Origin: a virus
Reading direction: 5' to 3' (one strand)
IMG/VR virus record: IMGVR_UViG_3300045988_113306
DNA length: 64,000 bases
Within the stretch, counting starts at the first letter, position 1. Every line of letters starts with the position of its first letter. This document shows positions 24,784 to 54,442 of the stretch, in pieces. The notes below the pieces were generated by a model. The model saw only the letters and a program-made list of their open reading frames with translations, did not search any database and was not told the DNA's origin. The position numbers were made by a program, and so were the translations under genes.

Positions 24784-24874
24784 AGCAAACAAAATCCCCG
24801 AATGGGGCCGTTACACACCCAAACGAGGCTTTAGAAGGTTAAACTTGCGGTAACGGACGCAAATATAGTCTTAG

Positions 24875-24947
24875 TGGCGGGAGCAGGAATCGAACCTGCG
24901 ACCTCTGAGTTATGAGCACAGCGAGCTTCCGACTGCTCCATCCCGCG
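24875..24947 (-). tRNA. tRNA with CAU anticodon (Met, or Ile2 if lysidine-modified)
   Basis: Hand-folded cloverleaf: 6 Watson-Crick acceptor pairs plus C1:C72 mismatch, U8, D arm GAGC/GCUC, anticodon loop CUCAUAA, T arm GCAGG-UUCGAUU-CCUGC. Confidence 0.8.
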
Positions 24948-25027: not shown

Positions 25028-25200
25028 AAAATTACTTAAATAACCTAAAATTAATACCTATGGAAACAAAAAGCAAAGATATGAAAAACGGACGACTTTC
25101 ACAAGCCATCCGCATAATTAATCACTTAAATCCAATATTATGATGAAAGAATTGCTATTTAGCTTTGACATACTCCCACGGCTAAAGCGCGTGGGATTCT
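25028..25200 (-). ncRNA. expected omega/reRNA of TnpB (position inferred)
   Basis: TnpB guide RNAs overlap the tnpB 3' end and right end; hairpin TCCCACG/CGTGGGA spans the stop codon (about 25172-25195); boundaries not determined. Confidence 0.35.
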
Positions 25201-26334
25201 TGTGTGCAAACGCAGGATGCCGTATCAGATACGGTCTTACTCCCGCTCCACAATTCGGAGATGCCCCTCCGAAGTATATTCTCAGCCGCATTGAGGTCGC
25301 GGTCGTTTACCTTGCCGCATTCGGGACATACCCATTCGCGGTCGCTAAGTTTCAATCCTTTGTTCACATATCCACACTCGCAAGTTTTTGAGGACGGATA
25401 GAATCTATCTATCTTATGAACCGTCACGCCATACTTTCGTGCAATGTGTTCAAGTCTGCCGACAAATTCAGCATGAGCCAAATCCGACATCTTGCGTCCC
25501 CACATTCTCGTCATGCCGAGCAACGATAAATCTTCAATGAAGATATAATCATATTTGCGGCACAACTCATGTGCGAGCTTCCACTGAAAAAACTCGCGTT
25601 TGTGAGTGATGTTCTCGAACTCGCGGCACACATCCTTGCGTCTGCGCTGTCGGTTATTCGAGCCTTTCTTGCATTTGGATAGTGAGCTGGATTTGCGCCT
25701 AACGTTGTCAAGGTCGGATTTTAAGAACTGTGGATTCCTTACGGTCGTACCGTCCGATAAGGTCATATAGGTCTTTAAGCCGAAGTCAATGCCTACGGAT
25801 GCACCATTGTGTGTCTTTCCGTATGCTTTCGGGTCTGCGTCCGTTGTGATTATCAGATAGTATTCACCGAGTCGTGAACGCTTGATTGCGATTCGTTTAA
25901 CCCTGCCCTCATAAGGCCGCGAATAAGAGAATTTGAAACGCTTCTTGATTGTATTCACCGTCAATGCGTTCCCGTTCAAAGAGAATCCTCCCTGCTTATA
26001 GACAATAGAACAGAAGTCAATCGCTTTTCTGAATTTAGGAGGCCGTTTTGCCAGCTTCTTAAAGAAACGTTGATATGATGTATCAAGGCGTTCAAGAATC
26101 TCTTGTGTCGTCTGTGAATGTAGCAGAGTGCGTTTTATTCTCTTTGCATAATGCTTCTGCATCGCATTCTTTGAGATAAACTTACCAAACAGCGAATAAT
26201 ACCTCTTCTGCAATGCAAGGGAGTGATTCCATACAAAGGAAGCCTCTCGCAGCATAGCCGAGAGATGCTTATTCCGCTTGGAATTATAGAGCTTATATTT
26301 GTACGAAATCATATACAAAGATAGTGATTAATTA
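25116..26334 (-). mobile_element. tnpB-only IS200/IS605-type (IS1341-like) element, no tnpA
   Basis: tnpB flanked by a 12-nt inverted repeat TAATTAATCACT (25116-25127) / AGTGATTAATTA (26323-26334); boundaries tentative. Confidence 0.55.
25182..26312 (-). CDS. tnpB: TnpB RNA-guided endonuclease (IS605 OrfB family)
   Basis: RuvC motifs GIDFG, IFIEDL, DRDLNAAENI; zinc finger CECG...CPECG; ATG at 26312; 376 aa. Confidence 0.9.
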   Translation of the reverse strand: MISYKYKLYNSKRNKHLSAMLREASFVWNHSLALQKRYYSLFGKFISKNAMQKHYAKRIKRTLLHSQTTQEILERLDTSYQRFFKKLAKRPPKFRKAIDFCSIVYKQGGFSLNGNALTVNTIKKRFKFSYSRPYEGRVKRIAIKRSRLGEYYLIITTDADPKAYGKTHNGASVGIDFGLKTYMTLSDGTTVRNPQFLKSDLDNVRRKSSSLSKCKKGSNNRQRRRKDVCREFENITHKREFFQWKLAHELCRKYDYIFIEDLSLLGMTRMWGRKMSDLAHAEFVGRLEHIARKYGVTVHKIDRFYPSSKTCECGYVNKGLKLSDREWVCPECGKVNDRDLNAAENILRRGISELWSGSKTVSDTASCVCTQESHAL

Positions 26335-31859: not shown

Positions 31860-32302
31860 TCACTTTGGAAGTGTCATCTTCGCAACAAATCCATAGCAAC
31901 TTGACAACCAATGACTCTCATTGTCAAACTCTCCGCCAGTAGTAGGCACTTCCTCCTCATTATTGACAAGAATTACATTATTCAAATAATAATATTTGGT
32001 GAAATTGAATATCATATATCCGACAAGGCCATCATTATCGCCAAATTCCATGTAATCAAAGAGAACGGGTTCTTGATTATAGTTACGACCTCTGCTCCAC
32101 ATTTGTGAAGATTCAACAATACTTGGCGCAACAATGAATAGTTCAAATTCTTCCGACGGCTCGTCACGCACTTTTCTCAAATAAAGACTTCTGCTGTTAA
32201 GCGGTATTTTATCAACTACGTCACCCCCCCCTCGGAAGAGCCACCGGCCTGTAAATCAGCAACATGCTCGGTGACTAACTTGTCTAATTTATACTTGTTC
32301 AT
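31860..32302 (-). pseudogene. hypothetical ORF interrupted at a G8 (plus-strand C8) tract
   Basis: ATG 32302 gives MNKYKLDKLVTEHVADLQAGGSSEGGVT*; a 9-nt tract would fuse it to track ORF 31860..32180. Confidence 0.5.
32224..32231. repeat. C8 homopolymer tract
   Basis: Counted directly in the sequence. Confidence 0.95.
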
Positions 32303-32319
32303 ATCAACATGTTTTGTCG

Positions 32320-32327
32320 CAAATTTA
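32320..32327 (-). promoter_or_regulatory. candidate -7 promoter box TAAATTTG
   Basis: CAAATTTA on plus strand, 17 nt upstream of ATG 32302. Confidence 0.35.
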
Positions 32328-33228: not shown

Positions 33229-33697
33229 CGATTTCAACAAAAATATGCCAAAAAACATGAGATAAGACAGCAGAATCTCACACTCCCGACCTTATTTCCA
33301 AGGTTTCCCCGCCATTATATAACGTATATTAGTACCCCATCCTAACATAGAAACACTATACTATGTATATACTATATATAAAGAAAAGAATAACTAAAGT
33401 TATTCTCAAAGAAGTGAAACTCCCCTCACAGCACGGCAATTGTTTGGAGTTGTCGACGCCTGAAAGGCACAAGACGAATCCAAGCCTTTGCCAGTGCGAC
33501 CCCAACGCCACACATAAAAAACGTGCATCATATTCTCATACAATGCACGCCATCCAAAAAGTTAACTTACCAATGCAATTTGAAACAAAAAACCAATCAT
33601 TGCTCGAACACAAAGGTAACACTTCCTGAACGAAAATAAAAAAAATAAAAATAAAAAATTTCGAGATGAGGTTGGGTGCAGCCAAAATGGCTATACA

Positions 33698-33705
33698 GGG
33701 GGGGG
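33698..33705. repeat. G8 homopolymer tract in non-coding DNA
   Basis: Counted directly. Confidence 0.95.
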
Positions 33706-33910
33706 CGGTATGTAGCATATATAGACAACAAAATCATAATGCCGTCTATTTGGCTCAGAAATGGCTCTATTTTCGATTTAAATATGTTAGACGATAATTT
33801 ATATATCTGAAATATTTTAGGCTGCCACAACGCAAATAAACGACCAATTGTCAAGCGTTGCACTTGAATAGTGTTATATAGCAATGTAACACCACTATTG
33901 TTGGTATCAT

Positions 33911-33968
33911 AATAAGTGTATATTTTACACTCAATCCTGCGATGCAGCAAACAACTATAAATTTAGTT
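33911..33968. repeat. control-region repeat block, copy 1
   Basis: AATAAGTGTATATTTTACAC, TGCGATGCAGC, then AACTATAAATTTAGTT. Confidence 0.8.
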
Positions 33969-34000
33969 TGCGCTCGTACTCAAATCACCCACACAACTAT

Positions 34001-34016
34001 AACTATAATTATAGTT
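34001..34016. repeat. perfect 16-bp palindrome AACTATAATTATAGTT
   Basis: Read directly; an extra half-site AACTAT lies immediately upstream. Confidence 0.9.
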
Positions 34017-34169
34017 TATCCACACAAAAACAAAGGGGCAATTAAGCACCCTTAACGTTATGCATGTGGCATATGCAAATATTATTCTTATTTTTATAAT
34101 CTATTAACAATTATTTACATTTTCCTTATATATAGTACCGCGTGCGAGTGTATCTATTACGGTTTCTGG

Positions 34170-34244
34170 AATAAGTGTATTTTTTACACTTATTATGTGC
34201 GCTGCATCAATTTTGCCGGCTAATCCTCAACTATAATTTTAGTT
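34170..34244. repeat. control-region repeat block, copy 2
   Basis: AATAAGTGTATTTTTTACACTTATT (10-bp-arm palindrome), TGCGCTGCATC, then AACTATAATTTTAGTT. Confidence 0.8.
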
Positions 34245-34363
34245 GTGTGAACTATGAATTGCCGTTTGAATGTTGGATATTGAGGTGTATTTGTAAATGA
34301 ATGTAAACTAAATTATGCTATTTGTTAAATAATATATAATATATGAAAAATTACGGCATAACA

Positions 34364-34395
34364 TTTGGTATTTGCAACCAAATGTTATAACTTTG
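34364..34395 (+). promoter_or_regulatory. Bacteroidota-type promoter (TTTG-N20-TAACTTTG) heading the rightward module
   Basis: -33 box 34364-34367, -7 box 34388-34395. Confidence 0.55.
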
Positions 34396-34812
34396 CTCCC
34401 GCAATCGAACATTGACACAATGAAATGGTGAAGTTAACACTAACGCAATTGATTTTGTGTGAATTATTACTTTTGAGTGAGCGTGTTAATGTAGCTATTT
34501 TGCGCTTTACCATTCAGATAAATTCCTGAGTTTCAGGAGGATTAAAAACGAGTTGAACCGTTAACAGGTGAACTATGTCCCAACTGAAACATGAATTAAT
34601 TGCCAATGGCGGGGCAAAAACCGCGTTGACAGCCAAAACCAATCTATTTTGTGAGTATTGAACTTATGTCGTAATTAAGGGATAAAGGGGCAAAATACAT
34701 ACGTTAATACAATTCCAAGCGAATAGGGCACGGGTTATTCCCATTACGTGTTAGAGCCAGGAAGCCGTGACGTTGGAATATAACGGGCAGGTTGCGTTCA
34801 TCGGAAAGACAT

Positions 34813-34880
34813 CGGGGAGATATGGAAACATTGAGCGGGTCGAGCCGCCTCCCCGAACCAACCAATTAAACTTACAATAT
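34813..34880 (+). promoter_or_regulatory. intergenic cassette 1: stem-loop plus ACCAAT box
   Basis: CGGGGAG/CTCCCCG stem; ACCAAT at 34861, 20 nt before the ATG. Confidence 0.6.
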
Positions 34881-35000
34881 ATGAAAGAGAAACTAATCAT
34901 AGGCGCGAAGTGCGTCGCCGTCATCGTGGCGTGTGTGTCAGCGGTAGTGTTGTTAATCGGATTCATGCGTGTGTGTGAGTCGATTGGATTTACAATGTGA
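34881..35000 (+). CDS. 39-aa membrane peptide
   Basis: MKEKLIIGAKCVAVIVACVSAVVLLIGFMRVCESIGFTM; ATG at the cassette-defined distance. Confidence 0.45.
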   Translation: MKEKLIIGAKCVAVIVACVSAVVLLIGFMRVCESIGFTM

Positions 35001-43474: not shown

Positions 43475-43723
43475 ATGAAAGAAATTGAAGAGTATTGGAA
43501 GCTCAAAGAGCAGATACACCAAAAGAAAGTAGCCGCCATGTATCAAATCCAAAGGAAGATGAATCTTTACGGATTTGATACACTACCTTATGAGATAAAT
43601 ACGGCGATTTACCCCGAATTAAATAGAGAGAAAATGGTGATTACGGTATTTTTTTCCAAAGATGAAAAGAAGCTTGATAAATTGGCCGAAAAAATATTCA
43701 AGAGTTTGACGGACAAACAATAA
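43475..43723 (+). CDS. small hypothetical protein, 82 aa
   Basis: Track ORF. Confidence 0.5.
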   Translation: MKEIEEYWKLKEQIHQKKVAAMYQIQRKMNLYGFDTLPYEINTAIYPELNREKMVITVFFSKDEKKLDKLAEKIFKSLTDKQ

Positions 43724-43737
43724 TAAACCACTACAAC

Positions 43738-44013
43738 ATGGGCAAGGAAGTAACCCCCGACGATTCAAGCGACCTCAAAAGCAGCATGGATGTATTGAAG
43801 CAGCTGGAAGCCAAACGCAACACAAAGATAAGGCAAGCCGTCAGCGCATTGGCAAAGGCCATATACGGAGTCCACTTGGACGGCATGGATGTTTCCATCA
43901 AACACAATCGCAAAGGATTCACGGTGGAGATAGCGACCGACCTTGACAGCGGCATAGAACGCCTCAGGGAAAATTTGAAAGTATTGATGTTTAACTATTT
44001 TGACAATAAATAA
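43738..44013 (+). CDS. small hypothetical protein, 91 aa
   Basis: Track ORF. Confidence 0.5.
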   Translation: MGKEVTPDDSSDLKSSMDVLKQLEAKRNTKIRQAVSALAKAIYGVHLDGMDVSIKHNRKGFTVEIATDLDSGIERLRENLKVLMFNYFDNK

Positions 44014-44017
44014 AACA

Positions 44018-44809
44018 ATGGCAACGTATGCGTATCTAAGGTATTCAACAAATTTGCAAGACGAGGCACAACAGTTGAATACGATAACAAACTACCTCAA
44101 GCAAAAAGGCATGACACTCGATAGAACTTATATGGATGAGGGCATATCGGGCGGTATAAGCTATACAAAACGTAATCTCTATGACTTATGCAAGGCTATC
44201 AAGCAAGGCGATACCGTGGTCGTGAGCGAAGTTAGCCGATTGACACGTTCAGGAATATCGGAGCTTTCGGAAATCATAGAGAAGCATTTCAAGACCAATA
44301 AACTTAGGCTTATTATATGTAATGTGGGCCTTGACATTGACTGCTCTGACATAAATCCCATGACGGAGCTACAGCTTGCAATGCTTGCCACTTTTGCCAA
44401 AATAGAGCGTAATTTGATTAAAGAGCGCACCAAATCTGCTCTTGATGTGCGTAAGCAAAAACTCGCCAACGGTGAAACTCTAATCAGCAAGGCTGGAAGA
44501 GCATACACCAAGTTAGGCCGACAGGACGACAATGCAGGCACCGCGTGGGACAAGGCATTGAACAACTCCATCGAAACCAATAAGAAAAAAGCGCAGGACA
44601 ACGAGAACAACATACGCTTCGCCCGATGGCTCGGCGTGTGGGAATCCAAGAACGGCGTCGTTGACCGACATACCGACCTCGCCCCAATTCTCGCCGAGGT
44701 CAGCGCTTTGGGCCTAAAGACATCATCCGGCATGGAGTTCAAAAAAGAATCCCTAAGACAGATGATATATCGAACCCACGAAAGAAAATTGCAAACAATC
44801 AACGCATAA
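44018..44809 (+). CDS. serine recombinase (resolvase/invertase catalytic domain), 263 aa
   Basis: MATYAYLRYSTNLQDEAQQ (catalytic Ser context), GISGG, VVSEVSRLTRS, ERNLIKERTKSAL; ATG at 44018. Confidence 0.7.
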   Translation: MATYAYLRYSTNLQDEAQQLNTITNYLKQKGMTLDRTYMDEGISGGISYTKRNLYDLCKAIKQGDTVVVSEVSRLTRSGISELSEIIEKHFKTNKLRLIICNVGLDIDCSDINPMTELQLAMLATFAKIERNLIKERTKSALDVRKQKLANGETLISKAGRAYTKLGRQDDNAGTAWDKALNNSIETNKKKAQDNENNIRFARWLGVWESKNGVVDRHTDLAPILAEVSALGLKTSSGMEFKKESLRQMIYRTHERKLQTINA

Positions 44810-44811
44810 TG

Positions 44812-44843
44812 CTTGCATATATGAATACTATTCGCTAACTTTG
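44812..44843 (+). promoter_or_regulatory. candidate promoter (CTTG-N20-TAACTTTG)
   Basis: -7 box 44836-44843, 35 nt upstream of ATG 44878. Confidence 0.45.
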
Positions 44844-44877
44844 CAACATAATCATTAACCATTAATAACCACTACAA

Positions 44878-45196
44878 ATGGAAACAACAACCACTACTAC
44901 CAAGGTCTGCTCCAAGTGCGGACAGGAACTTCCCTTAACCAGCTTCTACACCAAAAAAGGAACTAAGGACGGCTTGCAATATTGGTGCAAGGAATGTCAG
45001 GGTAAGATGTCTAAGAAGTATTACAAGGCCAAAACTATCACCCCCCCCCCATTCTGAGTTGTCGAATCCCGAACTCGCAAGCCTACAGCCACGTGAAATC
45101 ATTGCACAAATTAAGACTTTAATAAAGGAGCTTCGCGCCCGTGGATATACCTACGAGGAAGGCAAGCTGTCATATACTCAAACAATCAAACTTTAA
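44878..45196 (+). pseudogene. zinc-ribbon ORF interrupted at a C10 tract
   Basis: METTTTTTKVCSKCGQELPL...YWCKECQGKMSKKYYKAKTITPPPF*; with C9 it would continue ..HSELSNPELASLQPREIIAQIKTLIKELRARGYTYEEGKL.. to 45196. Confidence 0.55.
45041..45050. repeat. C10 homopolymer tract
   Basis: Counted directly. Confidence 0.95.
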
Positions 45197-45200
45197 TGAA

Positions 45201-45452
45201 ATGAAAGAGGAATTAATCGTCACCAAAATGTCACGCCTCATCGCCGATGAGATAAAGGCCCAAATGGAAGCCCAAGGCATCACCGCCACCAAGCTTGAAC
45301 GTATGCTGGAGGATAAGTGTAATAAATACACCATTCGTAGAATCCGCAAGGGTTCGTCCGGCTGCATACTGCGCTCATACGAACAAGTGCTTGATGCTTT
45401 GGGCCTGCGCATAGGAATCATACACAATTCACATAAGGACATCATAGACTAA
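45201..45452 (+). CDS. possible XRE-type HTH regulator, 83 aa
   Basis: Track ORF 45141..45452 shortened to ATG 45201; QGITATKLERMLEDKCNKYTIRRIRKG resembles an HTH_XRE core. Confidence 0.4.
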   Translation: MKEELIVTKMSRLIADEIKAQMEAQGITATKLERMLEDKCNKYTIRRIRKGSSGCILRSYEQVLDALGLRIGIIHNSHKDIID

Positions 45453-45752
45453 ATGGCCATGCTGACCAACGAACAAATCACCGCCCTCGCCCGCGAGTTT
45501 GCGGAGGAAATGTGCGCCCACATGGAGGACGACTTCATTAAAGACGAAGCCATTAGAGATAACGAGTTGACCTTTAAGATGGCAGTCAATCACCTCTCAC
45601 AACGCTACTGCCTCGTCGAGAAAAGCAAAGCCACTGAACTATGCCGTCTGGCTTTGGAACACAGCGACAGCGTAGACTACGGACTGATAGACGGTCTTAG
45701 CGATATTGTGTGGGAACTCTTTCCCGACATAGCAAAGGAGGTGGAGGGATGA
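45453..45752 (+). CDS. hypothetical protein, 99 aa
   Basis: Track ORF. Confidence 0.5.
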   Translation: MAMLTNEQITALAREFAEEMCAHMEDDFIKDEAIRDNELTFKMAVNHLSQRYCLVEKSKATELCRLALEHSDSVDYGLIDGLSDIVWELFPDIAKEVEG

Positions 45753-46167
45753 TTATGCAGAATGAGATTGAAAAGGCGGCAGACGAATATGTCTATGAGC
45801 GTCTTAAAATAAGACATTATGCCAAAAGAGAAGAAGATGCCACTATGCGCGACTTCGATAAGACAGTGAAAGCATGGGATTCCTACGACATGATGCAAGC
45901 CTTTGAATCTGGAACTAATCTCTTCCTCGGCAAACAGAAGGACGCCGATACCGTGATTCAAGGATGGGTGGCACGAGACCAAGACGGCTATATCTCCCTA
46001 TTCAAAGACAAACCCACAAGGGACACGTGCGACAAAGACGATATTCTCTATGGCTTTTGGGATGAAGCTAACGGACACCATATCGAATTGCCAACCGACT
46101 CTTCCCCTCCGTGACGTGGGAAGGCGAGCCTAAGAAAGTTAAAATTGAGATAACACCTATTGACTAA
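45749..46167 (+). pseudogene. hypothetical ORF apparently frameshifted at a C4 run
   Basis: Frame A stops at 46114 (..ELPTDSSPP*); the other frame reads FPSVTWEGEPKKVKIEITPID* and its TAA overlaps the next ATG (TAATG); one extra C at 46104-46107 joins them. Confidence 0.45.
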
Positions 46168-46334
46168 TGAAAAGGATAAAAATAGCATTTGACTGCATTG
46201 TTACAGACAAAACCGCTCAGGAGCTAATGGATGCCCCTGAGATATGCGTCCAAGATAATATCATGGACGCATTGGAGATAAATGATACCTGTGAATGTGC
46301 TTTGGATTTAAGGATTGAGGAGATTTGGGAATGA
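46167..46334 (+). CDS. small hypothetical protein, 55 aa
   Basis: Own translation MKRIKIAFDCIVTDKTAQELMDAPEICVQDNIMDALEINDTCECALDLRIEEIWE. Confidence 0.45.
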   Translation: MKRIKIAFDCIVTDKTAQELMDAPEICVQDNIMDALEINDTCECALDLRIEEIWE

Positions 46335-46510
46335 AATTGTATAAATTCTTAAAATACTTCGACCTGTGCCTCATGGGTATGTGCGGTGGGTTAACGTTGG
46401 TGACCGTTATTAAACAAAATTACGGGTACGCTCTTTGGTTCACCGTCTTATGTGCGGCCTACTATTGGTGTTATAATATAAGTTCAAAACAATTAAAAAA
46501 AGATAAATGA
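46331..46510 (+). CDS. small membrane protein, 59 aa
   Basis: ATGA overlap with previous stop; two hydrophobic helices. Confidence 0.5.
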   Translation: MKLYKFLKYFDLCLMGMCGGLTLVTVIKQNYGYALWFTVLCAAYYWCYNISSKQLKKDK

Positions 46511-47197: not shown

Positions 47198-47485
47198 ATG
47201 CTAAACAAAAAAGTAATTATTCGTGGTGACCGTTCTGGCGTGTTCTTTGGCACCCTTGCCGAAAAGAATGGTCAAGAAGTCAAATTAACCAATTGTCGCC
47301 GACTGTGGTATTGGAGCGGCGCTGCATCACTCTCGCAGCTTGCCGTGGACGGTGTTGCTAATCCTGACGGATGTAAGTTTACAGTGTCGGTTGACGAGAT
47401 TGTCATTCTTGACGCAATCGAAATCATTCCCTGCACCGTTAAGGCCGTAAAATCAATAACGTCAACACGCGAATGGAGAATTTAG
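47198..47485 (+). CDS. hypothetical protein, 95 aa
   Basis: Track ORF. Confidence 0.5.
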   Translation: MLNKKVIIRGDRSGVFFGTLAEKNGQEVKLTNCRRLWYWSGAASLSQLAVDGVANPDGCKFTVSVDEIVILDAIEIIPCTVKAVKSITSTREWRI

Positions 47486-48183
47486 AAAACAAGATAAGGA
47501 ACTTCTTATCTATAGGCTCCGGCTCCGGCTCCGGCGACGGCTCCGGCTCCGGCGACGGCGACGGCGACGGCGACGGCTCCGGCTCCGGCGACGGCTACGG
47601 CTACGGCTACGGCTACGGCTCCGGCGACGGCTACGGCTACGGCGACGGCACCGGCTCCGGCGACGGCTACGGCTCCGGCTACGGCTACGGCTCCGGCGAC
47701 GGCTCCGGCTCCGGCATGTTGAAAGAATGGATGGGGCAACATGTCTATTCGATAGATGGTGTTGCGACATTGATTGATTCAGTCCACGGCAACTATGCTA
47801 AAGGTCGCATATTAAAAAAAGACCTCACTACTGAATCGTGTTTCATCGCTAAGGTTGAGGGCAGATACTTCGCCCACGGCGAAACATTGCGTGAGGCGAT
47901 GGCTGATGCGATGAACAAGGCGTTTGAAGATTTGCCTGAAGGCGAGCGTATAGATAAGTTTGTGGCAGAATATCCCGATAAGAATATAGTCGCCAAGAAT
48001 ACGGATTTATTCGCTTGGCACAACCGATTGACAGGTTCGTGCGAGATGGGACGCCGTGCATTCGCTAAAGAACACGACATTGATGTTGAGAACGGTTTAA
48101 TGACCGTTGAAGAATTCATAAAGCTAACCATTGATTCTTATGGCGGCGAAACTATTGTGAAACTAAAAGAAAGATATGAGTAG
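47473..48183 (+). CDS. protein with N-terminal (Gly-X) repeat and globular C-terminal domain, 236 aa
   Basis: Track ORF; 67 residues of strict G-S/D/Y/T alternation, then an ordinary-looking 155-aa domain. Confidence 0.6.
   Translation: MENLENKIRNFLSIGSGSGSGDGSGSGDGDGDGDGSGSGDGYGYGYGYGSGDGYGYGDGTGSGDGYGSGYGYGSGDGSGSGMLKEWMGQHVYSIDGVATLIDSVHGNYAKGRILKKDLTTESCFIAKVEGRYFAHGETLREAMADAMNKAFEDLPEGERIDKFVAEYPDKNIVAKNTDLFAWHNRLTGSCEMGRRAFAKEHDIDVENGLMTVEEFIKLTIDSYGGETIVKLKERYE
47515..47715 (+). repeat. 201-nt hexanucleotide repeat GGC-(TCC/GAC/TAC/ACC)
   Basis: Every Gly codon is GGC and every X codon ends in C; read directly. Confidence 0.95.
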
Positions 48184-50448: not shown

Positions 50449-50683
50449 GATACGACGCATTGAATCTCAAACGGATTATTCGTATCTTGGCGTGAACGAC
50501 AATCCCTTGCAAGAGTGCGCAACCGCATACACTAACGCATGGATTGTCGCTTTTAAGGAATCCGAATTAGTTTTTTTGATTGTGCGATGTCGCGTAAAGT
50601 CTTTTCATACAAAGATGATGCGTAAATTAAAGGCCATGCCCGAAAGTCCAAAGAAAGAACAAACAGCAAAACAGACAATATGA
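50408..50683 (+). CDS. hypothetical protein, 91 aa
   Basis: Track ORF; 41-nt overlap with the previous gene. Confidence 0.4.
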   Translation: MTSIRKTKKALKREIRRIESQTDYSYLGVNDNPLQECATAYTNAWIVAFKESELVFLIVRCRVKSFHTKMMRKLKAMPESPKKEQTAKQTI

Positions 50684-51508
50684 AAATAGACATTACATTT
50701 GAACAAGCGTTGGCGAAAGCGTCACCATCCCTACGCGAGAAAATGATTAAGACCGTGGGGTTGCTTCGTAAGGCTGAAAAGTTAGCATTGAAATACGATG
50801 CTGATAACGGCTATTGGCTTGCGTTCTCTTGCGGCAAAGACAGCCAATGCTTATATCACATGACACAACTTGCATGCGTTAAGTTTAAGGCCCATTTCTC
50901 GCCAACATCATGCGACCCGCCGCAAGCGATAAGATTCTGTAAAACCAAATATCCCGAAGTGGAAATCATTCCGCCTAAGACGTCTATCTATAAAGCCGCA
51001 GTAGAGATGGCCTGTTTGCCTATGATGCGTGTAAGATACTGTTGTGCATTGTTCAAAGAGGGCCACGGTTCGGGGCGCGTAACCCTTACAGGTGTGCGTA
51101 AATCTGAATCTATCAAGCGTTCAAAACGACACGAGGTGGAAGTGTCTAACCACAAATTCAGTGGTGATTTAGACGATTTTACGGCGTATTCTGAAAAGCG
51201 CATAAAGAAAATCCTTAAACACGTCAATCAAGACCAATTCGGCGAAGCCAAGGAAACCGAAATAAGGTGCATATCGGGCAAGGACAAGATTATAGTCAAT
51301 CCTATAATCGACTGGACCGAATCGGATGTGTGGGAGTTCTTGAATAATGTCGTTGAAGTTCCCCATTGCGAGTTGTATGACCCTCCGTATAATAAGAAAC
51401 GAATCGGATGTATTCTTTGCCCGATGTCCTCTTACAAAAACAAGCTGCAAGATTGTGAAGACTATCCGCATATAAAAGCTAAATGGCTGAAAGTCATTAA
51501 ATTAATTC

Positions 51509-51516
51509 GGGGGGGG
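51509..51516. repeat. G8 homopolymer tract
   Basis: Counted directly. Confidence 0.95.
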
Positions 51517-51564
51517 CGAATCAGGCTCGAAGGAGTATGGGGCCTCAACATACCTACAACGTAT

Positions 51565-51575
51565 GGGGGGGGGGG
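51565..51575. repeat. G11 homopolymer tract
   Basis: Counted directly. Confidence 0.95.
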
Positions 51576-51802
51576 ATTTCCCGAATGGGCTTCCCAATAC
51601 ACGCGAAATCAGACGGAGCGGAATCGCATGAACAAAAGAATGGAGAGAATTATCCCTTTTGCGATAGCCCCGACATGGGGCTGACCGACGAAGAAAAAGA
51701 GGACTATATATGTGAAAAGATTTTTCAATGGTGGATAAGTGGCAAATCTTACGACAAGTGGTTTGCAGAAGAATTTCTACAACAAAAACTAAATTTTGAC
51801 GA

Positions 51803-52042
51803 ATGACACAAGAACAGTACGAAAGAGCGGAGTTAATAGCTCGCAAACTTCGCAATATGAACTTAGCGCTTGACGCTATGAAATCCCAATAGGACGTTAC
51901 TCTGACTATTGATTTGTACAGACATGAATATGATGTGTTCCCACAAAAAGTTGTTCTGTGTGACGATGGCGTGAATAATCTCATAAGAGAATATTTAACC
52001 AACCGTATCACCGAACTTGAAAAGGAATTTAAATGGCTATGA
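51803..52042 (+). pseudogene. small ORF with in-frame TAG
   Basis: MTQEQYERAELIARKLRNMNLALDAMKSQ-TAG(51890-51892)-DVTLTIDLYRHEYDVFPQKVVLCDDGVNNLIREYLTNRITELEKEFKWL*; no ATG in the second half. Confidence 0.4.
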
Positions 52043-53115: not shown

Positions 53116-53147
53116 CTTGCGTGTTTCAAGGATTATTGCTATCTTTG
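53116..53147 (+). promoter_or_regulatory. candidate promoter (CTTG-N20-TATCTTTG)
   Basis: -7 box 53140-53147; 119-nt leader to ATG 53267. Confidence 0.5.
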
Positions 53148-53186
53148 TGATGCGAATTAGTATGAATCAGTTTTATGAAATAAAAA

Positions 53187-53262
53187 GTCCGAGAAAGTGT
53201 TGGGTAGCGGAAACGCCCCAAGGTTGCATACTAACCTCGCAGCACTTCGCTCGGATTTTTTT
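53187..53262 (+). promoter_or_regulatory. terminator-like structure in the leader of KilA-N copy 2
   Basis: TCCGAG..AAGTG pairs with CACTT..CTCGGA around two small inner hairpins, followed by TTTTTTT 5 nt before the ATG. Confidence 0.5.
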
Positions 53263-53266
53263 AACT

Positions 53267-54061
53267 ATGAATGAAATTCAAGTTTTTAATTACAACGGTA
53301 GCGGAATCGCGTTTAGCACCGACAAGTGTGTAATGGTGTCAGCTACCGCAATGGCGAAACCTTTTGGTAAATCCCCGACTGATTGGCTTAAAACTCGCAG
53401 TGCCAAACAGTTTGTCAAAGAATTGGGCGAGTTGAAGAATATCAACTCGGTTGATTTAGTGAAAGTTACATACGGTGACAACGGCGGCACATGGATGCAC
53501 GAAGATGTCGCGTTGGAGTTCGCACGTTGGTTGGCCCCCAAGTTTGCCATTTGGTGCAACGACCGAATAAAAGAATTGCTAACATATAGCAAAACTAATA
53601 TGCCCGCTATCCCGCAGACTTTCGCTGAAGCGTTGCAGCTCGCCGCCGACCAAGCCAAGCAGATTGAACAACAGCAAGCACTCCTATTGGCACAAGGCGA
53701 GGCAATAGCCGAAAAGGACAAGGCTATATCGGAACTGCACGAAAAGACTTCTTACCTTGATAAAATCCTGCAAAGCAAAGAAACTATCACCACGACTCAA
53801 ATAGCTCAAGACTATGGAATGTCGGCGAAGAAATTCAATGTTGAGCTTCGCAACATGAAGATTCAACGCAAAGTGGGCGGTCAGTGGATTCTTTACTCTC
53901 CCTACAACACTATGGGTTATGTCCATTCCGAAACTTTTATCCCAGAAAGCTCCACCACAAGGAAAGTTGTTACCCTTTCTAAATGGACTCAAAAAGGGAG
54001 GCTGTTTTTGTATGAGGAGATGAAGAAACGCGACATCCTGCCGTTGATTGAACGCAGATAG
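53267..54061 (+). CDS. KilA-N domain / antirepressor (KilAC-like C-terminus), copy 2
   Basis: FNYNGSGIAF...KSPTDWLKT...GTWMHEDVALEFARWLAPKFAIWCNDRIKELL; ATG at 53267 (MNEIQVF). Confidence 0.7.
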   Translation: MNEIQVFNYNGSGIAFSTDKCVMVSATAMAKPFGKSPTDWLKTRSAKQFVKELGELKNINSVDLVKVTYGDNGGTWMHEDVALEFARWLAPKFAIWCNDRIKELLTYSKTNMPAIPQTFAEALQLAADQAKQIEQQQALLLAQGEAIAEKDKAISELHEKTSYLDKILQSKETITTTQIAQDYGMSAKKFNVELRNMKIQRKVGGQWILYSPYNTMGYVHSETFIPESSTTRKVVTLSKWTQKGRLFLYEEMKKRDILPLIERR

Positions 54062-54182: not shown

Positions 54183-54254
54183 TGCCTCGTAGTATAACGG
54201 CTATTACATCAGTTTTTGGCACTGAATATGGTGTTTCGACTACACCCGAGGCAA
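54183..54254 (+). tRNA. tRNA-Gln (UUG)
   Basis: Hand fold: 7-bp acceptor with U1-A72, anticodon stem TCAGT/ACTGA, loop TTTTGGC, T arm GGTGT-TTCGACT-ACACC. Confidence 0.8.
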
Positions 54255-54353
54255 CTAAGGGATATGCAAGAGAGCAGTCCTGCGGCGTGAGGCGCTAATG
54301 ATACCATATTTATCTTATTTTTTCGCGGATGCAATGCAAGCACATCCGCACAT

Positions 54354-54424
54354 GGTTGAGTAGAAAAGTGGTAATTCAACGGTCTGCAAAACCGTCATCG
54401 GCGGTTCGATTCCGCCCTCAACCT
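54354..54424 (+). tRNA. tRNA-Cys (GCA)
   Basis: Hand fold: acceptor GGTTGAG/CTCAACC, anticodon stem ACGGT/ACCGT, loop CTGCAAA, T arm GGCGG-TTCGATT-CCGCC, discriminator U as in tRNA-Cys. Confidence 0.8.
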
Positions 54425-54442
54425 CTAATATTTTTGACTTCA

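Follow-up and report, generated by a model that had tools for sequence, protein, structure and literature searches.

A poly-C tract as a probable slipped-strand switch between full-length and zinc-ribbon-only forms of a small protein in a phage of Bacteroidota

A run of ten consecutive C residues interrupts a small zinc-ribbon gene in a 64,000-nucleotide stretch of viral DNA (IMG/VR record IMGVR_UViG_3300045988_113306; hereafter the window), which raises the question of whether the gene is miscalled, recoded during its expression, decaying, or switched by changes in the length of the run. The run lies at positions 45041–45050 (+ strand), where, as a preliminary description of this DNA had claimed, exactly ten C are counted, within an ORF that begins with an ATG at 44878 and stops at a TGA (45055–45057). 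The sequence around it reads ACT ATC A-CCCCCCCCCC-ATTCTGAGTTG, or in fuller context AAAACTATCA-C10-ATTCTGAGTTG. The 59-residue product of this out-of-frame (OFF) form (44878–45057, + strand), METTTTTTKVCSKCG...WCKECQ...TITPPPF, comprises an N-terminal CxxC...CxxC zinc ribbon and the start of a linker; the assignment of the ribbon in the preliminary description is borne out by the motif itself (CSKCG...CKEC) and by matches to PHROG zinc-ribbon profiles (E about 3e-15 to 1e-9). Its statement that translation stops seven codons after the run is only loosely correct, in that TITPPPF comprises seven residues; the stop itself is two codons past the end of the run. When one C is removed from the window sequence the tract, then C9, is in frame and the ORF reads METTT...TITPPHSELSNPELASLQPREIIAQIKTLIKELRARGYTYEEGKLSYTQTIKL*, a 105-residue protein ending at a TAA (45194–45196) that is 4 nt before the ATG of the next gene at 45201. 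The segment 3′ of the run (45051–45196, + strand), which codes for the rest of the linker and a C-terminal helical domain (...PREIIAQIKTLIKELRARGY...) and is spanned by full-length homologues of 104–107 residues, is read in one frame with the zinc ribbon when the tract is C9 and lies one base out of frame in the window, where its own frame is open up to the conserved stop.

The C10 run is no chance feature of the sequence. Five G/C runs of at least 8 nt are present in the window (C8 at 32224, G8 at 33698, C10 at 45041, G8 at 51509 and G11 at 51565) compared with 0.2–0.33 expected from order 1 and order 3 Markov simulations of the window, an approximately 15-fold excess, the largest number in any of 100 simulations being 2. 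For runs of at least 10 nt, two are observed and 0.01–0.03 expected with the same models; an order 5 control was left out, because the tracts themselves train a model of that order. Run lengths are bimodal, with one C6 and one G6, no G/C run of 7, and then the runs of 8–11. Nor are runs of identical codons explained by codon usage, since in the long ORFs of the window CCC accounts for 30% of Pro codons and GGG for 13% of Gly codons. Related phage contigs carry 3–5 G/C runs of at least 8 nt per 12–21 kb, and two further genes of the window are interrupted at runs of this class.

The window is identical to an 82,842-bp contig from a human-gut metagenome (ENA ERZ910656, run ERR688537, PRJEB7774); a megablast search of 43500–46500 against GenBank phages gave no match. 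A scan of IMG/VR and JGI metagenomes with the exact flanks of the window's own tract gave 0 matches, so length variation within the window's clade was taken from look-ups of exact protein sequences. The exact product of the next gene (45201–45452, 83 residues) occurs on five contigs, three of which carry the 105-residue form of the zinc-ribbon gene and two the 59-residue form. One assembly, L218 (ERZ1742687 NODE_85, 82,769 bp, ~12x coverage), has C9 and shows 0 mismatches to the window in 260 + 822 flanking nucleotides, such that C9 versus C10 is the sole difference across these 1,082 nt, and no SNP separates the two assemblies over 5 kb. L218 encodes the read-through protein precisely as predicted, and this protein is recorded (as P0137) on three contigs; the earlier expectation that a C9 tract would read through to end just before the next gene is thus realised in public assemblies. 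The C10 product is on record from JGI, Logan and ENA sources, and the exact-protein look-up found no products of C7, C8, C11 or C12 alleles of this strain.

The lack of SNPs allows that both assemblies, C9 and C10, come from a single individual or even a single read set, and if so the difference between them could be an Illumina or assembler miscall at ~12x. The first alternative to be weighed is therefore that C10 in the window's contig is a sequencing or assembly error and that the phage in truth carries C9 and a normal, uninterrupted 105-residue gene. Homopolymers of 9–10 nt are harder for short-read consensus calling than shorter ones, and the C9 state of assemblies otherwise identical to the window, the coverage of the C9 contig, and the fact that this strain is on record with C9 and C10 products only, are all as such an error would have it. 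Set against this are the records of the C10 product from JGI, Logan and ENA and the behaviour of the tract in other lineages; the miscall of one contig would leave the tract polymorphic across the family.

Within the window's clade most recorded alleles are in frame (ON). The gene of the closest relative, P0001, has C9 in three samples (L001–3), and the in-frame alleles encoding P0137, P0001, P0139 and P0140 (104–105 residues) all read TITPPHSE, with C9 read from the DNA for the first two and deduced from the protein for the last two. A C8 tract is in frame in the gene of P0004 (L090), the P0002 and L005 homologues are without any run, and the gene of P0010 (L223) has a G7 at the same place, out of frame. 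In an independent lineage (L222, encoding P0008) the gene lies directly 3′ of a serine recombinase and has a C10 that shifts the frame just as the window's tract does.

More distant IMG/VR relatives, at ~47% identity, have a run of G coding for Gly at the same linker position. A scan of this poly-G clade that used the flanks alone, and was hence blind to the reading frame, yielded 31 viral and 83 metagenome contigs, 114 in total. Tracts of the form Gn followed by AAT were found with n = 7 (1 contig), 8 (5), 9 (24), 10 (14), 11 (7) and 12 (1); those of the form GGGAGn followed by AAT with n = 7 (2), 8 (10), 9 (12) and 10 (5); and those of the form Gn followed by A with n = 8 (5), 9 (3), 10 (9) and 11 (1). 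Among the 114 contigs the run spans about 7–12 G and all three frames occur, about equally commonly. In-frame alleles number 35 of 114 (31%), no different from one third; as this is the random expectation, the poly-G assemblies give no sign of selection for the ON state. Contigs with 57–484x coverage also have out-of-frame states, which dominate there too. Among sequences that match throughout the 311-nt flanks, the tract has changed at least 22 times; 10 of its states occur within a single set of 43 contigs whose flanks are identical. The 39-codon C-terminal frame and the same stop are intact in 73 of 76 OFF alleles and in 32 of 35 ON alleles, and one identical C-terminal protein haplotype is common to 22 ON and 45 OFF alleles.

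Many of the poly-G metagenome contigs are 0.1–1.2 Mb long, which indicates an integrated prophage. The clade is present in the genomes of B. oleiciplenus YIT 12058, B. intestinalis AF14-32 and B. acidifaciens DSM 15896, in all three of which the tract is in frame, and in MAGs with a mixture of in-frame and out-of-frame states. All surveyed G/C runs of at least 7 nt in this prophage differ in length among contigs, whilst control A/T runs are mostly fixed (A7 in 41/44, A8 in 27/27 and T7 in 69/74), with two T-run exceptions. The out-of-frame C10 of the independent lineage, the range of lengths of the homologous G-run, its out-of-frame states in well-covered contigs and the stability of most A/T runs of 7–8 nt in the same contigs each argue against a miscall in the window, and we consider that explanation unlikely, whilst allowing it a real share of the probability.

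The full-length protein itself gives some indication of what is lost in the OFF form. Homologues of the read-through protein (104–107 residues, 97–100% coverage) include P0001 with 91% and P0002–P0004 with 56–59% identity; C11, C14, C37 and C40 are invariant among them, and a C-terminal ‘ELRARGY’ motif is conserved too, being kept in homologues with 38–62% identity to P0001. Profile matches to phrog_1035, 2255, 2340, 2633 and 5558 (E 2.9e-15 to 1.5e-9) relate the ribbon, CxxC-(about 20)-CxxC, to the zinc-ribbon module of phage EndoVII/HNH/Lar-like families, and the match to phrog_1035 covers residues 3–83, i.e. it extends across the tract. Pfam gave sub-threshold zinc-ribbon matches only, NCBIfam none above threshold and a PDB sequence search nothing significant; a Foldseek search likewise returned no significant match, the best (E = 0.47) being to the zinc site of Hpy99I. 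The HNH/EndoVII nuclease domain is absent, as the protein has only 105 residues, the profile matches end at approximately position 138 of 271, and there is no nuclease match in Pfam. Judged from these comparisons, the protein has the zinc-ribbon module of HNH/EndoVII-type proteins and is no nuclease.

In an AlphaFold (AF2) model of P0001 the zinc ribbon (residues 8–48) has a pLDDT of ~89, the linker encoded by the run (residues 55–63) is disordered (pLDDT <50), and a C-terminal helix is formed by residues 71–87; the run thus sits at a disordered linker between two confidently folded parts. The linker is Pro-coding in some lineages and Gly-coding in others, so it is the homopolymer that is conserved, and not the peptide. 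The affiliation of the ribbon with a phage HNH/EndoVII/Lar-like module, together with the constant presence of a recombinase, RuvC-like or SSB gene as a neighbour, suggests an accessory, nucleic-acid-binding role, and the protein most likely binds nucleic acid as part of the early recombination/replication module of the phage. The C-terminal helix probably mediates dimerisation or contact with a partner, and we therefore propose that the short form would be inactive or would compete with the long one.

The reading that we favour, and hold to be probable, is that the C10 tract is a slipped-strand contingency locus which would switch the protein between its full length and the zinc ribbon only. 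During replication of the phage or prophage, slipped-strand mispairing would add a base to the run or remove one, giving rise to mixed populations and a reversible switch between the full-length and the zinc-ribbon-only protein. The recurrence of a homopolymer at one linker across lineages with 40–60% identity, coding for Pro or Gly, argues for a maintained hypermutable tract and not an accident, as do the variation in its length on identical backgrounds and the preservation of the downstream domain. A slip-prone repeat lies within an ORF, its length differs between near-identical genomes, and the OFF allele is otherwise intact. The phase-variation reading in the preliminary description accordingly gains support, both from the C9 tract in an otherwise identical assembly and from G/C runs, of in-frame and out-of-frame lengths, at the same linker in the homologues of other lineages. 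In the poly-G clade a merely tolerated mutational hot spot would look the same as a switch. It is a matter of speculation, but the predominance of ON alleles in the window's clade and their frequency of about one third in the prophage clade would be in keeping with selection in lytic growth and drift in the lysogenic state.

A second alternative is programmed recoding, under which the gene is normally out of frame, and ribosomes slipping +1 on CCC-C, or RNA polymerase slipping on the run, make the short and the long protein in a fixed ratio. CCC-C and GGG-G are slippage-prone sequences, a +1 shift on the C10 allele gives exactly the C9 protein, the tract is conserved across lineages, and the near equality of the three frames in the poly-G clade is as if the frame were irrelevant. 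The outcome, a short and a long protein with a common N-terminus, would also be like that of the programmed frameshifts and slippage known from dnaX, IS element transposases and the phage tail chaperone G/GT. Those systems, however, conserve one out-of-frame arrangement together with stimulatory signals. In the present gene the frame differs between alleles in the DNA itself, and the search for a stimulator was negative; the homologues have no one out-of-frame configuration in common, most alleles in the window's clade are in frame with C9 or C8, and some homologues (P0002, L005) are without the tract. No stable RNA structure is predicted 3′ of the run, the minimum free energy of 45025–45130 being −8.2 kcal/mol compared with −12.0 kcal/mol in shuffles (z = +1.36), and Rfam has no match at the tract. 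Given that there is neither a conserved frame nor a 3′ structure, we reject programmed frameshifting as the main explanation and regard it as improbable, although some leaky +1 slippage on CCC-C is possible. Least probable of all, and likewise rejected, is the decay of the gene to a pseudogene after a random frameshift, which would imply neither reversibility nor function; the gene is small and two others in the window are interrupted too, but the downstream frame runs uninterrupted to the conserved stop both in the window and in nearly all OFF poly-G alleles, ON and OFF alleles have identical haplotypes in common, every interruption is at a G/C run and not at a random position, and the C-terminal motif is conserved even in distant homologues.

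The contingency-locus reading of the C10 tract can be set beside the other long runs of the window. The linker of a PAPS-reductase-family gene (50680–51806, + strand) contains both a G8 (51509–51516) and a G11 (51565–51575). The called ORF stops at 51684 (334 residues), and the conserved C-terminal domain (...IFQWWISGKSYDKWFAEEFLQQKLNFDE) lies in another frame that ends at 51806; an overall shift of +1 or −2 nt in the two G runs restores the frame, and none of the three frames has a stop between these runs. Clusters of this protein at ≥90% identity comprise ON forms of 373–375 residues and OFF forms of 315–334 residues, the linker being read in all three frames across the members by way of indels at three G runs, and one contig of the same strain (82,788 bp) encodes a 316-residue variant. 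A single-protein locus search with the PAPS reductase found distant relatives only, at 36% identity.

On the minus strand, a 26-codon leader (MNKYKLDKLVTEHVADLQAGGSSEGG; ATG at ~32296, within 31860–32327), which is preceded by TAAATTTG at 32320–32327, runs into a G8 (32224–32231, C8 on the plus strand) and then stops. A G9 at this position would fuse the leader to a 106-residue ORF (31860–32180). The relative L001 has an analogous leader followed by a G10 (MIKVDLLIRGNALIDSVMLGGG); a search for homologues of the fused gene found only the gene itself. The predicted ON products of this gene and of the PAPS-reductase gene are not on record for this exact strain. The remaining tract, a G8 at 33698–33705 (+ strand), lies in ~1.5 kb that has no long ORFs (33230–34900). 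L001 has a G9 in a recognisably similar context, with TTTCGAG..AGGTTGGG upstream and TATGT downstream, although the neighbouring DNA is only ~70% identical; this G8 may be a regulatory tract. The C10 tract is thus one of several in the phage, which together touch early, regulatory and DNA-modification genes and not structural genes.

A further G/C run, of 6–10 nt, was observed in the poly-G prophage, where its length varies in 61 contigs (L111 10622, L124 9502 and L213 about 5184). It is located ~686 nt 3′ of the zinc-ribbon tract and is flanked by a small radical-SAM-like gene and a gene for a Dcm-type DNA cytosine methyltransferase, and could represent a phase-variable promoter or 5′ region of the methyltransferase gene.

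The closest known system is that of Campylobacter phages, for which hypermutable polyG tracts have been described (Sorensen et al. 2021, Cell Rep 35:109214; cited in PMC12823448). These too are G:C homopolymers of ~8–12 nt in phage ORFs, several per genome, whose changes in length shift the frame and give mixed phage populations, whereas the evidence here consists of the comparison of assemblies. The host phylum is Bacteroidota here and Campylobacterota there, and the run described here is positioned mid-gene at a domain boundary, so that the OFF form keeps a folded domain. The tracts of the Campylobacter phages reportedly affect receptor-binding and structural genes, whereas the runs of the window lie within or next to genes with early, regulatory or DNA-modification functions, or outside coding sequence.

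Contingency loci with G/C tracts are well described in Neisseria, Haemophilus and Campylobacter jejuni (e.g. PMC8355987, PMC5084427). The same slipped-strand mechanism would operate here; the tract lengths match, with a mode of G9–G10, ON and OFF alleles occur in identical backgrounds, and there are several loci per genome, although in the present case these are on a phage or prophage and not in the surface-structure genes of a pathogen. Contingency loci and bet-hedging by reversible frameshifts have also been described for T2/T4 and other phages (Gomez, Barrick & Waters, bioRxiv 10.1101/2025.10.21.683753). Repeats are reported there to be in excess in regulatory and hypothetical genes and depleted in those for tail fibres and polymerases, a pattern that the placement of tracts in the window matches. 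That study counts repeats of at least 6 nt in coliphages and vibriophages and detects low-frequency variants from reads; by comparison, the G/C runs here are of 8–11 nt, a class hardly represented elsewhere in the genome, and their position is maintained between lineages that have 40–60% protein identity. Phenomena of this kind are therefore already established by the polyG tracts of Campylobacter phages and the contingency loci of T-even and other phages; for Bacteroides phages, consistent with what the preliminary description had surmised, the literature searched contained no report of such tracts. It is unusual here that the run is placed in a domain linker, that it seems to have originated repeatedly, as poly-G or as poly-C, and that the genes involved are non-structural.

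Phase variation in Bacteroides is attributed mainly to DNA invertases, and not to simple sequence repeats. A broader interpretation, which we put forward tentatively and judge somewhat less probable than its negation, is that there exists a family of Bacteroides phages and prophages with several phase-variable loci per genome, each based on a long G/C run. Such runs would have originated more than once at a given inter-domain linker, as poly-C in some lineages and poly-G in others, and, rather than just silencing genes, would switch full-length and single-domain isoforms of the zinc-ribbon protein and the PAPS-reductase-family enzyme, perhaps also tuning the expression of a DNA methyltransferase in the prophage. 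Such an arrangement would amount to bet-hedging over early, recombination and DNA-modification (possibly anti-defence) functions, in a phylum otherwise credited with invertases. Gut Bacteroides and their phages coexist for long periods, which is usually explained by phase variation on the side of the host, through the invertible promoters of capsule genes. If several hypermutable switches do reside in early, recombination and DNA-modification genes, then phage populations would be pre-diversified as well, with a bearing on models of phage–host coexistence, on phage therapy and on annotation, since such genes regularly appear in annotated metagenome assemblies as truncated or split ORFs. With more than 100 alleles of one locus already in public metagenomes, switching is measurable directly from existing reads.

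The genes around the tract inform on the context in which the zinc-ribbon protein is likely to act. Directly upstream is a small serine recombinase (263 residues; 44018–44809, + strand) with a resolvase N-terminal catalytic domain (PF00239, E 1.5e-26, residues 10–154); its best similarity in NCBIfam is to the Bacteroides Mpi master-invertase family, at 77.8 bits, below the cut-off of 272. The position directly 3′ of a serine recombinase, to which attention had been drawn at the outset, holds in the window's clade only (11 loci); in the poly-G clade the upstream neighbour is instead a RuvC-like gene unrelated to the serine recombinase (128 loci, e.g. L213 6016–6471). A functional link to the recombinase was dropped for this reason, and the zinc-ribbon gene is only loosely associated with the recombination and replication module. 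The same upstream position is held by two different DNA-recombination enzymes across the clades. An octamer at 44836–44843 (+ strand), TAACTTTG, 35 nt upstream of the ATG, fits the Bacteroidota −7 promoter consensus TAnnTTTG, which has 75 matches in the window compared with 50 ± 7.7 in shuffles; on the basis of this fit it is a putative promoter.

The window belongs to a tailed phage, with a large terminase, a major head protein, a primase-helicase and an SbcC-like protein, and it also encodes several DNA methyltransferases, two PAPS-reductase-family genes and KilA-N/Ant proteins. The closest terminases, with only 27% identity, are those of Bacteroides and Phocaeicola phages, which, with the enrichment of TAnnTTTG and the presence of the poly-G clade in Bacteroides isolate genomes, supports the host phylum assumed initially, Bacteroidota, and more narrowly a host among the Bacteroidales. 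An Rfam match to the c4-2 antisense RNA (RF02944, 61 bits, gathering score 41) at 53184–53261 (+ strand) is situated at the 5′ end of a KilA-N/Ant antirepressor ORF (53117–54061). Together the two resemble the P1/P7-type immunity arrangement, which hints at a temperate lifestyle. Other features of the phage are a transposase-like gene (25182–26318, − strand; phrog_506, E 8e-88) and, listed alongside it, three tRNA genes for Met, Gln and Cys (24874–24947 and 54183–54425). The ORF at 47473–48183 (+ strand) encodes a long low-complexity repeat of Gly, Ser, Asp and Tyr (GSGSGDGDGDG...GYGYGYG), which is followed by a conserved C-terminal part.
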